From positions 1-23,777 of IMG/VR virus record IMGVR_UViG_2698536484_000001: DNA of 23,777 nucleotides; one strand, 5' to 3'. This DNA comes from a virus (lineage: Duplodnaviria > Heunggongvirae > Uroviricota > Caudoviricetes). This document shows, piece after piece, positions 20,759 through 23,329 of this stretch (positions are counted from its first letter, which is position 1; every line of letters starts with the position of its first letter). Below the pieces are notes generated by a model, which worked only from the letters and a program-made list of their open reading frames with translations, had not been told where the DNA came from and did not search any database. The translations under genes and the position numbers were made by a program.

Positions 20759-21283
20759 TTACCGGGACTGTTCTATTTGTCGGACACCAGCCAACTGGTT
20801 ATTCGCCTTCTCGATGGCAGCCAACAATGGGTTAATCCACAGAACAGCCTGGCAATATGTCAACGTTCTGGTGGTAGTGGCACGATCACCGGCTGAGTCA
20901 ATGTCCCCGGAATCGGCGTGCAATGCGCTGGCGCGTAAACGGTTCGCGTAGTTGAGCAACCCGACAGCAATATCAACAGGAACAGGGAAATCACAGTTCT
21001 TTTCACGGAGCAGAACCTCACGGTATTTGATGACTGTCTTCTCGTGACCGATGTCGACCAGAGAATTTAATCGGCTTGCGTTTTCTGCTATCTGGTTAAA
21101 ACGATTGAAGTTTAATGCCTGATTAGCTATCACTTTCCCTTGATATTCAGCTTCACCTTCCGCTTTATCAGCCCGCAACTTTTCTGCCTGATACTTGCTG
21201 TGGTAATGGTTTGCAGACCAGACGAGCGCCCCAAAGGCAGAGAAGAAAAATGCCGCGATGACAATCTTATAAGTCAGCTTCAT
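20759..21283 (-). CDS. Rz: Rz-like i-spanin
   Basis: 174-aa ORF overlapping the endolysin 3' end; N-terminal transmembrane segment (IVIAAFFFSAFGALVW) followed by WSANHY (compare lambda Rz WAVNHY) and a coiled-coil-like region; contains an embedded +1 lipoprotein ORF. Confidence 0.75.
   Translation of the reverse strand: MKLTYKIVIAAFFFSAFGALVWSANHYHSKYQAEKLRADKAEGEAEYQGKVIANQALNFNRFNQIAENASRLNSLVDIGHEKTVIKYREVLLREKNCDFPVPVDIAVGLLNYANRLRASALHADSGDIDSAGDRATTTRTLTYCQAVLWINPLLAAIEKANNQLAGVRQIEQSR
20860..21006 (-). CDS. Rz1: Rz1-like o-spanin lipoprotein embedded in Rz (+1 frame)
   Basis: Hand-translated +1 frame inside Rz: GTG start at 21006-21004 (GAGG 9 nt upstream), MKRTVISLFLLILLSGC-STTRTVYAPAHCTPIPGTLTQPVIVPLPPER, stop TGA 20862-20860. 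Signal peptide with LSGC lipobox and a Pro-rich mature part with a second Cys, as in lambda Rz1. There is no internal ATG in Rz, so a GTG start is required; 48 aa is too short to appear in the ORF track. Confidence 0.65.
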   Translation of the reverse strand: MKRTVISLFLLILLSGCSTTRTVYAPAHCTPIPGTLTQPVIVPLPPER

Positions 21284-21743
21284 TTACCACCCCACCAGCA
21301 TCTTTAAACCTGGAAATCAGGTCACCGATTTTATGTTCATACTGACCGTAACCTGCACCAGGTAACGACGCCCAGATATTGCTGCAACGGTCGATTGCCT
21401 GACGAATATCGCCACGGTCAATCATCGGTAAAGCGCCACGCTCTTTAATCTGCTGCAGCGCCACAGCGTCCTGACTTTCTGGCGAAAAATCTTTCAGGCC
21501 AAGCTGCTTACAGTAGGCATCCCACCAGCGTGAAAGAAGCTGATACCGGCCTGCGGCTGTTGATTTAAGCTTCGGGTTTAGCGTGACAAGTTTGCGAGGG
21601 TGATCGGAGTAATCAGTGAACAACTCACCTCCGACGATAACGTCATAACCGTGATTACGTGTCGGTTGTCGCCCGTTATCCGTTCCTTCTGACCATGCCA
21701 CCATATCCAGGAAAGCTTTACGTTGGGAATTTAGTGTCTGCAT
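21267..21743 (-). CDS. R: Endolysin, lambda R-type lytic transglycosylase
   Basis: 158-aa protein is near-identical over most of its length to phage lambda R as I recall it (NSQRKAFLDMVAWSEGTDNGRQPTRNHGYDVIVGGELFTDYSDHPRKLVTLNPKLKST...RYQLLSRWWDAY...), including the catalytic Glu in AWSEGTD. Confidence 0.9.
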   Translation of the reverse strand: MQTLNSQRKAFLDMVAWSEGTDNGRQPTRNHGYDVIVGGELFTDYSDHPRKLVTLNPKLKSTAAGRYQLLSRWWDAYCKQLGLKDFSPESQDAVALQQIKERGALPMIDRGDIRQAIDRCSNIWASLPGAGYGQYEHKIGDLISRFKDAGGVVNEADL

Positions 21744-21746
21744 GAA

Positions 21747-22106
21747 TTACTCCTTAGAGCCACCAAACTTGTTACCGATTACTCGCATTGCAGCCCCACG
21801 AATAGCATCGACACCGATCAGCCCAACACCACCACCAATGGCAACAGAAAGCGATTTAGGCCATCCGACATACTCAAGAGCGGATGCAAAAGTCAGCGTC
21901 AGAGCACCACAGAGCAAAATCTCAAGCGTTTTTCGTTTCCAGCCGCCGCCACCGCCAAAATAGGCAATGCGCAAGCCAGCCATAACAATTGACATAACCA
22001 CTGCGCCCAACGGCGTATCTCCACGCCACCAACTTTGTAAGAGTTCCAGTAAGTCAGGCCAGGAATGAGGAGCATTGTGCATTTTCATACTTCCCACCTC
22101 CGCCAT
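21747..22106 (-). CDS. S: Class I holin (lambda S family); probable true start at 22088
   Basis: Three predicted TM segments and a charged C-terminus; alignable by eye with lambda S (RIAYFGGGGGWKRKTLEILLCGALTL vs lambda [26 protein letters not shown]). Track ORF begins MAEVGS-MKMH, but the first six codons encode the Shine-Dalgarno GGAGGTGGG, so the real starts are probably Met7 (22088) and Met9 (22082), an M-K-M dual start like lambda S107/S105. Confidence 0.8.
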   Translation of the reverse strand: MAEVGSMKMHNAPHSWPDLLELLQSWWRGDTPLGAVVMSIVMAGLRIAYFGGGGGWKRKTLEILLCGALTLTFASALEYVGWPKSLSVAIGGGVGLIGVDAIRGAAMRVIGNKFGGSKE

Positions 22107-22533
22107 TACGGGGTGTTGTTGAAAGGCGGGCCCTGCGTATACGCCCGTAGGATTGGGTTATGAGCCGTCCTTCGGTGGGCCCTGAATACAAAAAAAGTTC
22201 GCCATAGCGAACCTTGTTAAATTTGTTAAAAAAGGAGGTTATTTAACATAATGTACGTTATAGGAACCACACGATCCCCGCTCGCAATAGATTTGCGATG
22301 AAAGGCCTATTTAATCAACTTAAGTGGTCCAGAATGACGAAATTCGAGTGAATAAAAGGTGCATAAAAAAGGGCAAAAACTGCATAGCGTTTTTTCGCAG
22401 CGAAAGCCCTGTTTTATTAACTTTTCCCCAGAATGGGGCAATAAAAAAGGCCCCCTTGCGGAAGCCTCTTCGTGATGAACTGTTTTCAACAGATATCAGG
22501 CTAATCGGCTTTTTGGAATTCCACAACTATTTT
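22107..22533 (-). promoter_or_regulatory. Late regulatory intergenic region (candidate late promoter, Q-utilisation site, leader)
   Basis: 427-bp non-coding gap between the 113-aa gene and the holin, the canonical place for the Q-dependent late promoter; contains several GC stems with U tracts (GGGGC-cuuuuuuauu-GCCCC, plus 22435-22454; CCCC-auucu-GGGG) and a 10-bp palindrome GCGTATACGC (22135-22144). Exact -35/-10 elements could not be assigned. Confidence 0.4.
22190..22212 (-). terminator. tR'-like intrinsic terminator upstream of the holin
   Basis: Minus strand reads GUUCGC-uaug-GCGAAC followed by UUUUUUU: 6-bp stem (plus 22197-22212), 4-nt loop, 7-U tract, about 85-100 nt upstream of the holin start, analogous to lambda tR' downstream of pR'. 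Confidence 0.4.
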
Positions 22534-22875
22534 TTATCTTACCTTGATGCCTGATGCCGTCAGATGTTTACGACAGTCCTGAATACCTTCGTTATAACCC
22601 GCATCGTAGAAGCTATCCGGCTTTGCCTTCAGCGCAGGAAGCGTAACGCTGGTAGCTCTTCGTTCGGCCAGAACACCTGCCTGAAAGAGTGTCCACATCA
22701 ACTGAACTGCTGAATCACAGTAAGTAACATCTTCACTGTACAATTCTCGTTCAATCCTGATGCCAAGTTGAGCCTTCATTGATGCGCCAATATTACCTTT
22801 GACCTGCAACGACAGGTCTGGGTACCTCTGTTCCATGAAGCTTTCAAATCTGTTGCGAACGCTGATCAGAGCCAT
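22534..22875 (-). CDS. Hypothetical protein (113 aa) between Q and the lysis cassette
   Basis: ORF with AAGGGAA 6 nt upstream of ATG at 22875; no family recognised; occupies the Q-to-S slot where lambdoid phages often carry morons. Confidence 0.45.
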   Translation of the reverse strand: MALISVRNRFESFMEQRYPDLSLQVKGNIGASMKAQLGIRIERELYSEDVTYCDSAVQLMWTLFQAGVLAERRATSVTLPALKAKPDSFYDAGYNEGIQDCRKHLTASGIKVR

Positions 22876-22906
22876 CTGGTTCCCTTACGTGATTGATTGC
22901 TGGATA

Positions 22907-23329
22907 TTATGCCGCCGAGCAGCTCCTACGCAAAGTCCTGATAGCCTGAGGCTTTGACTGAACCGACTGATCCATTTCGAGCACCACATCCAGCATGGCT
23001 AAGCAACCGTCAATAAATCCCTCTGCCGCCTGAAGCCTCTTCAGAACGTGGGTGTGAGATACGCCGAGCTTCTCACCCATCGCCCGCACGGGCATGGCCT
23101 GGACGTAATGCCACTCAAGGAGCGTGCACAGATACGGATCTTTTTTCTTCAGGCAGCTCATAGCGGAGTTGATGATAAGACCGTCATTGTCACTGCATTT
23201 CAGCCTTCCAGACTGCGTCGCGGGTAGCAGATTCTTAAACCCGGCTGCAACAGGAGGAAAGTAGACGCTACCACCTTCACTCGCTGCCCAGCCACCCCAG
23301 CGCTCTAAAACCTGTTGAATATTACGCAT
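22907..23329 (-). CDS. Late-gene antitermination protein Q (QuuD / phage 82-21 type)
   Basis: 140-aa protein begins MRNIQQVLERWGGWAA...AAGFK and ends ...LKRLQAAEGFIDGCLAMLDVVLEMD, matching the pattern I recall for the E. coli DLP12 QuuD Q-family antiterminator (MRDIQMVLERWGAWAA...AAGFK...KRLQKAEGIIEGML..LD..LEMD); sits upstream of the lysis cassette as expected. Confidence 0.75.
   Translation of the reverse strand: MRNIQQVLERWGGWAASEGGSVYFPPVAAGFKNLLPATQSGRLKCSDNDGLIINSAMSCLKKKDPYLCTLLEWHYVQAMPVRAMGEKLGVSHTHVLKRLQAAEGFIDGCLAMLDVVLEMDQSVQSKPQAIRTLRRSCSAA

Follow-up and report, generated by a model that had tools for sequence, protein, structure and literature searches.

The holin gene and its lysis cassette

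The window, by which we mean the whole 23,777-nucleotide stretch of viral DNA that was analysed, carries a holin gene as the first gene of a holin-endolysin-Rz/Rz1 cassette, with the antiterminator gene Q and terminator-like hairpins upstream and TerS (PF03592) downstream of the lysis genes. Every gene identified in this neighbourhood, between Q and TerS inclusive and with the lysis genes among them, is on the minus strand. The E. coli phages vB_EcoM-606R2, 689R2, 611R5 and 683R1 match the segment at 99.8% identity. The holin product matches Pfam family PF05106 (Phage_holin_3_1, the lambda S family; E=1.2e-27, 96.7 bits against a cut-off of 23.8) and PHROG 126, 'holin/anti-holin' (2.8e-39), and displays three hydrophobic blocks by Kyte-Doolittle hydropathy, which align with those of lambda S, as well as a short, charged C-terminus (GNKFGGSKE). 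These matches, the three hydrophobic segments and the site directly 5' of the endolysin and Rz/Rz1 genes bear out the identification as a holin that had been made in an earlier, sequence-only reading of this DNA, and we predict that the gene encodes a class I holin of the lambda S family belonging to an E. coli lambdoid (SfV/606R2-like) prophage.

The remaining members of the cassette follow on the same strand. The endolysin (21267..21743, minus strand) is lambda R-like, with a match to PHROG 90 (1.6e-62), zero Pfam-A matches at E<=0.01, and relatives annotated as endolysin or GH24; the RefSeq name is glycoside hydrolase family 24. The Rz spanin (20759..21283, minus strand; PHROG 214, 1.6e-58) contains an embedded ORF of 53 aa (21021..20860, minus strand; PHROG 456, 8.5e-07) that is a candidate Rz1 lipoprotein. 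This ORF has a GTG start and an LLSGC lipobox, lies out of frame within Rz as in lambda, and draws a weak Pfam match to LysC (0.0078).

Upstream, the antiterminator Q (22907..23329, minus strand; PF06530, E=5e-42) is separated from the holin by a 113-aa ORF (22875..22534, minus strand), which is annotated as hypothetical in relatives and matches PHROGs 37465, 15831 ('head closure') and 343 without a Pfam match. An intrinsic-terminator-like hairpin of 9 bp followed by U7, resembling tR', lies upstream of the holin leader (22194..22215, minus strand; z=-3.65), and a terminator is likewise found shortly upstream of the holin leader in relatives. A second terminator-like hairpin, of 12 bp with a U-run, lies between Q and the 113-aa ORF on one side and the holin on the other (22471..22440, minus strand); it also draws sub-threshold Rfam matches (ctRNA_p42d, E=0.004). 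Both hairpins are probably tR'-like sites read through by Q, and Q should drive late transcription through them into the lysis cassette. Lambda has the same gene order, namely Q, terminator, S, R and Rz/Rz1.

Read directly from the minus-strand letters (cgtaATGGCGGAGGTGGGAAGTATGAAAATGCAC), the mechanical holin ORF (22106..21747, minus strand) encodes 119 aa beginning MAEVGS-MKMH, and the leader RNA runs CAACAACACCCCGUA followed by AUG GCG GAG GUG GGA AGU AUG AAA AUG CAC. The layout proposed from sequence alone, with this N-terminus and a GGAGG 8 nt ahead of Met7, is exact on these letters. The strong Shine-Dalgarno sequence (SD), GGAGGUGGG at 22093..22101 on the minus strand, has its GGAGG core at 22101-22097, 8 nt from the Met7 ATG (22088-22086) and 14 nt from the Met9 ATG (22082-22080), so that this single strong SD is well placed for Met7 only; the duplex of GGAGGUG with the 16S 3' end (the anti-SD) is calculated at -10.8 kcal/mol. 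Between the two ATGs is the Lys8 codon AAA (22083..22085, minus strand), for which relatives in Yersinia, Serratia and Erwinia have AGA or CGU, both coding for Arg, so that the residue stays basic. Between the leader hairpin described below and Met7 lies a single-stranded purine tract, GGAAGU (22089..22094, minus strand). Its duplex with the anti-SD is calculated at -4 to -5 kcal/mol and it lies 7 nt 5' of the Met9 AUG, making it a candidate weak SD for that start. Initiation at Met7 would give a long form of 113 aa (MKMHNAPH..., 21747..22088), the proposed antiholin, and initiation at Met9 a short form of 111 aa (MHNAPH..., 21747..22082), the proposed effector holin. The first in-frame ATG (22104..22106, minus strand; the 'Met1' of the 119-aa ORF, hereafter ATG1) had been described as lacking an SD, and this holds in terms of duplex energy, as no 9-nt window upstream of it reaches -3 kcal/mol with the anti-SD. 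Public annotation also begins downstream of ATG1: in near-identical GenBank phage records a 342-nt 'holin/antiholin component S' begins at Met7, and the RefSeq PGAP protein WP_000781776.1 has 113 aa, again from Met7.

The leader hairpin and the position of ATG1

The sequence-only reading had called for RNA structure prediction around the start codons in search of a stem like lambda sdi, and such a stem is predicted. The hairpin, CACCCCGU-AAUG-GCGG(A)GGUG at 22095..22115 on the minus strand, consists of a 5' arm (22115-22108), a 4-nt loop (22107-22104) and a 3' arm (22103-22095) in which A22099 is bulged; the 3' arm holds most of the SD, and the loop, AAUG, contains ATG1. By itself the hairpin is calculated at -10.3 kcal/mol. 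Folding of a 45-nt context gives -13.9 kcal/mol (z=-2.4; a single one of 200 shuffles did equally well) and the hairpin as the centroid structure. It is this local hairpin alone that stands out, since the fold of a 151-nt context is unremarkable (z=-0.43). Nor does the probability of the SD being paired separate real from shuffled upstream flanks, these leaders being C-rich and the shuffles themselves yielding 0.65-0.84. Rfam covariance models gave no match at 22080-22130, and the four matches in 21700-22950 were below the gathering threshold and lay elsewhere. A small hairpin over both AUGs, GUAU/AUGC, was considered and rejected, as it is intrinsic to any AUG-NNN-AUG.

The same geometry recurs in relatives whose leaders are otherwise unrelated in sequence. 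A hairpin of this kind is the centroid structure in six leader types, and each of the other leader types can form one from a sequence of its own, as in 473R12 (CACC-A-UCCGA-ACUC-UCGGA-GGUG), locus L056 (CACUUCCG-AUAAC-CGGAGGUG), SfV (CACC-CGC-AAAUAUC-GCG-A-GGUG), SfII (CACC-UGCUG-UAU-CAGCG-A-GGUG) and Klebsiella (CACC-CGCA-ACCC-UGCG-A-GGUG). Over the leader types the energies range from -8.3 to -11.6 kcal/mol, compared to -9.7 for lambda sdi in the same calculation. When only the 20 nt upstream of the SD were shuffled, 1000 times, the window hairpin was matched by 20 of the shuffles and lambda sdi by 16, while the 473R12, L056, L063, SW-37, SfV, SfII and Klebsiella types were matched by 3-22 and the Raoultella, Enterobacter, L101, Serratia fonticola and Fels-1 types by 26-53. 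By this test the hairpin did not reach significance in the leader of Izhakiella, nor in the GC-rich leaders from Serratia and Yersinia.

Covariation was assessed in an alignment of 18 distinct leaders (A5), which was made by hand with N-padding, a MAFFT alignment (A4) having lost the register of the SD; being hand-fitted, its pair counts lean towards the structure. Within it 95.4% of cells are standard pairs, compared to 81.6% after shuffling (with not one of 500 shuffles attaining the 95.4%) and 34-57% with slid partners. Changes on both sides occur at three pairs, one of them CG in 10 leaders and GC in 7, a second GC in 9 and CG in 8, and the third present as AU, UG, GC, GU and UA. RNAalifold, run on the same alignment with no structure imposed, recovers a core of 4+3 bp, two of the seven pairs being compensatory. 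The outer stem CACC/GGUG hardly varies and is little informative. The pattern of substitution indicates that the hairpin is conserved with compensatory changes, and its structure under selection, across the SfV/Fels-1-like clade.

The distribution of ATG1 is far narrower. We examined 84 close loci, comprising four phage records (L001-L004, with holins 86-100% identical) and 80 IMG/VR loci (holins at least 96% identical), the leaders of which fall into several unrelated sequence types. ATG1 is present in 22 of the 84, all of the window leader type, and is absent from all other types; in the 92%-identical 473R12 type its position is CTC. In contrast to this restricted codon, GAGGUG and the Met9 ATG are invariant across all leader types (alignment A1), from which we conclude that the six codons are conserved as an RNA signal and not as protein. 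The claim that ATG1 is unused therefore gains from its lack of an SD, its place in a 4-nt hairpin loop, its absence from other leader types, the onset of homology to 92%-identical relatives only downstream of it, at 22102, and the annotations that start at Met7, and very probably ATG1 does not serve as a start codon; we interpret the MAEVGS codons as leader RNA and ATG1 as an accident of the loop sequence. Megablast homology with other leader types starts at 22102, in searches of both phage and E. coli genomes, which places a mosaic joint just inside the six-codon extension, within the hairpin's 3' arm; ahead of the coding sequence the leader types have only the SD and a conserved 5' GCACC in common. 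Among 5,426 complete E. coli genomes, 388 carry the holin 5' end and 138 carry it together with the window-type leader (at least 80% coverage); E. coli 2011C-4251 (NZ_CP027388.1) is one strain in which the segment is identical.

Several public gene calls for relatives are over-extended upstream. These include the calls at 401-760 of locus L110 (E. coli GCA_012244845.1) and at 401-757 of locus L112 (Erwinia pyrifoliae), as well as protein P0001. One such call is a 119-aa 'MCEVRDDEMPHN' ('MCEVRDDE...') holin that starts from an in-frame AUG in the hairpin loop of its own leader, another ('MRDMRM') starts from a GTG inside the SD, and a third, of 152 aa, starts in the loop of the upstream terminator.

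Conservation and loss of the upstream start

In 17 species-level genomic loci with holins of 49-89% identity, the start reads M-K-M in nine, M-R-M in six and M-T-M in one, and the upstream start is missing from one; this sample is biased, as the motif itself was one of the two scan patterns. Genome contigs were scanned with a profile built without lambda S. A protein search that was not anchored at the N-terminus yielded 120 cluster representatives, of which 86 carry M-[KR]-M. An in-frame upstream start is missing from a further 18, where 16 calls begin at the codon equivalent to Met9 and two are longer upstream calls; the remainder are fragments. It is because of this conservation, and not from the single sequence, that the motif can be regarded as more than chance. 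Among relatives the codon between the two methionines is AAA, AGA or CGU; AAA and CGU differ at all three positions and yet both encode basic residues, which speaks for a long form that is translated and whose positive charge is under selection. The resemblance to the lambda motif noted earlier, with a Lys between two starts, is thus upheld by the retention of a basic residue through different codons and by the 86 of 120 representatives. The single M-T-M locus is that of Rouxiella sp. T17 (L100, about 340-410), where the SD is weak (GGAGA) and an SD hairpin is not apparent; this may be a dual start that lacks the positive charge, or the gene may have one start only.

Close relatives have lost the in-frame upstream start by at least four distinct routes, namely ATG to ATA substitution (loci L082 and L083), deletion of one nucleotide (L059, L077 and L081), insertion of two nucleotides that puts the upstream AUG out of frame (SfV and mEp460), and ATA combined with a longer spacer (SfII and L091). 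The Met9 ATG is consequently the sole in-frame start in SfV, SfII, L059, L077, L081, L082 and L083, and also in two large protein clusters, with 331 and 427 members. Since the upstream start has been lost in close relatives, Met9 must be sufficient and the antiholin start dispensable there, and the antiholin start could be functionally weak in the window phage too.

The closest characterised phages are Shigella SfV, SfII and SfIV and coliphage mEp460, whose holins share 86-89% protein identity with that of the window. These phages also share its lysis cassette and the CACC...GGUG hairpin that includes the SD. SfV and mEp460 have no in-frame upstream start, their AUG being out of frame, and SfII and SfIV have ATA. 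The SfIV genome paper describes the holins of SfI, SfII, SfIV and SfV as having no dual start, and their timing control as unknown (PMC3851460). In SfV (1472-1482, locus L003), mEp460 (L090) and L110 (about 415-425) a well-spaced AUG follows the hairpin and SD outside the holin frame (ATGACGAAATG in SfV, offset 8; ATGATGAAATG in L110); in SfV it would open an overlapping upstream ORF of 30 aa. This AUG may be what remains of the antiholin start, or may act as a decoy. It is not conserved, ATA being found at the position in SfII, SfIV and L091.

The holin of the Salmonella prophage Fels-1/ST64B belongs to the same clade (58% identity over the aligned part) and starts MKMH, and the Fels-1 record is itself annotated 'Dual start motif'. 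There a hairpin of a C-run and a G-run abuts the SD. The spacing of GGAGG is only 2 nt to the first AUG but 8 nt to the second, an arrangement that leans towards the holin start.

Start choice and lysis timing

In lambda, according to the summary in a 2025 preprint (bioRxiv 10.1101/2025.05.14.654169), a near-consensus SD, GGGGG, serves Met1 and yields the antiholin, access to it being controlled by an upstream stem-loop, while an unusual SD, UAAG, serves Met3 and yields the holin, which is the majority product; an intragenic stem (nt 31-47) contributes, and the antiholin:holin ratio is about 1:2. The extra positive charge of the lambda antiholin blocks insertion of its first transmembrane domain (TMD1) until the membrane depolarises (PMC9636201). 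Phage P22 gene 13 and phage 21 S21 (S71/S68) also have dual starts, the longer product with its basic residue being the antiholin (Nam et al. 1990; Barenboim et al. 1999, as cited in PMC9841429 and PMC9636201); we liken these two to the present gene by their description in the literature, S21 being a class II pinholin of another family.

The window holin shares with lambda S (S107/S105) its Pfam family and the M-K-M start, despite only 23% protein identity and a tail before TMD1 that is four residues longer. In both, the strong SD forms the 3' arm of a hairpin, at equal distance from the start and with similar stability (-9.7 kcal/mol for lambda sdi, AUCCCC-UUAUU-GGGGGU, and -10.3 here), although the SD itself is GGGGG in lambda and the canonical GGAGG in the window. 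Both also have a short purine tract between the hairpin and the first AUG, UAAGAC in lambda and GGAAGU here. The window has the first three elements of lambda, namely the gated SD, the purine tract as candidate weak SD and M-K-M, in the same order and spacing. Unlike lambda it has no conserved intragenic stem downstream, as RNAalifold applied to positions -6 to +80 of 17 relatives found just two invariant pairs (-0.31 kcal/mol), and it has the accidental in-frame ATG in its hairpin loop.

We consider it likely that the gene is a lambda-style dual-start holin initiating at M-K-M, with the MAEVGS leader RNA folding into a hairpin that hides the SD. From the sequence features, family, predicted fold and covarying conservation described above, we infer that both starts would be used, and that the long form would act as antiholin. 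With an open hairpin, the 30S subunit would bind GGAGG and, given the 8-nt spacing, come to lie on the Met7 AUG, yielding the 113-aa antiholin, in which the extra Lys and the free amino terminus would hold TMD1 on the cytoplasmic side. When it is closed, only the free GGAAGU would be available, 7 nt from the Met9 AUG, and the product would be the 111-aa lethal holin. Hairpin stability would then set the antiholin:holin ratio and hence the time of lysis. Service of Met9 by the free purine tract past the hairpin, as in the two-SD arrangement of lambda, seems to us the more likely route to the short form; relatives have AGG, GGAAU or AGAGA in the place of GGAAGU, and in the single-start SfV type the purine tract is the sole plausible SD for the holin AUG. 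The N-terminal tail of the short form, MHNAPHSWPDLLELLQSWWRGD, is net negative, which would fit N-out insertion, and the long form adds the Lys.

Relatives in which the in-frame upstream start is gone nevertheless retain the hairpin and SD module, again with compensatory changes, and in SfV, mEp460 and L110 this module would direct ribosomes to the out-of-frame AUG that overlaps the holin start. It is conceivable, though in our view doubtful, that hairpin and strong SD form a family-wide timer of lysis that acts at the RNA level independently of any antiholin protein, in which case the module would throttle initiation at the holin AUG or divert it to a decoy start, whether or not an antiholin is made.

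Four further explanations are all less consistent with the pattern of conservation than the dual-start reading. Met9 might simply be residue 3 of a single 113-aa holin begun at Met7, with no antiholin, as the 14 nt between the strong SD and the Met9 AUG are too far for efficient use and the purine tract binds the anti-SD weakly. We judge this unlikely, because Met9 is invariant and its status as the sole in-frame start in SfV, SfII and the clusters of 331 and 427 members implies that initiation there works without the Met7 codon, while the corresponding weak SD of lambda, UAAG, serves Met3 and gives the majority product.

Conversely, the hairpin might shut off the strong SD in vivo, leaving Met9 as the only start and the Met7 codon and Lys as relics. 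The repeated loss of the upstream start in close relatives would accord with this, as would a hairpin stability about equal to that of the SD:anti-SD duplex, but the retention of M-[KR]-M in most of the family and across genera, its middle residue staying basic whether the codon is AAA, AGA or CGU, would be unexpected for an untranslated relic, and we regard exclusive use of Met9 as very unlikely.

That the hairpin has no role in translation, being instead a chance GC-rich fold, an element of mRNA stability or the terminator-like site flagged on the plus strand at 22098..22113, is highly improbable, even though the SD often pairs with shuffled flanks and the 151-nt fold is unexceptional. The plus-strand site is merely the reverse complement of the minus-strand hairpin, its tail (TGTTGTTGAA) lacks a continuous T run and the neighbouring genes are on the minus strand, so that the terminator reading was rejected; and a geometry with the SD as 3' arm, a loop of 3-7 nt and about -10 kcal/mol recurs with compensatory changes in unrelated leaders and in lambda, where it is functionally defined. 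A start at ATG1, which would yield all 119 aa of the MAEVGS-MKMH protein either as the sole product or as a third isoform, is extremely unlikely, for although the ORF is open from ATG1 and some gene callers make similar long calls in relatives (P0001, P0004), this codon sits without an SD in the loop of a single leader type (CTC in 473R12), codons 2-5 are conserved as SD and stem and not as protein, and RefSeq and GenBank ignore it.

Public annotation already contains the dual-start idea, the family and the start at Met7. What is added here is the conservation of the hairpin with covariation, the interpretation of ATG1 as a loop accident, and the alleles that differ in the antiholin start. No new principle is involved, as the gene would work like lambda S, and this holin matters mainly for annotation and for the understanding of lysis timing. 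For annotation, this common E. coli prophage gene is predicted to make proteins of 113 and 111 aa, not 119 aa. For lysis timing, the lambda arrangement of a hairpin-gated SD and M-K/R-M extends over a holin clade that is 23% identical to lambda S, within which the antiholin start has been gained or lost between alleles of 87-96% identity. These alleles therefore provide natural pairs for testing the contribution of the antiholin to fitness.
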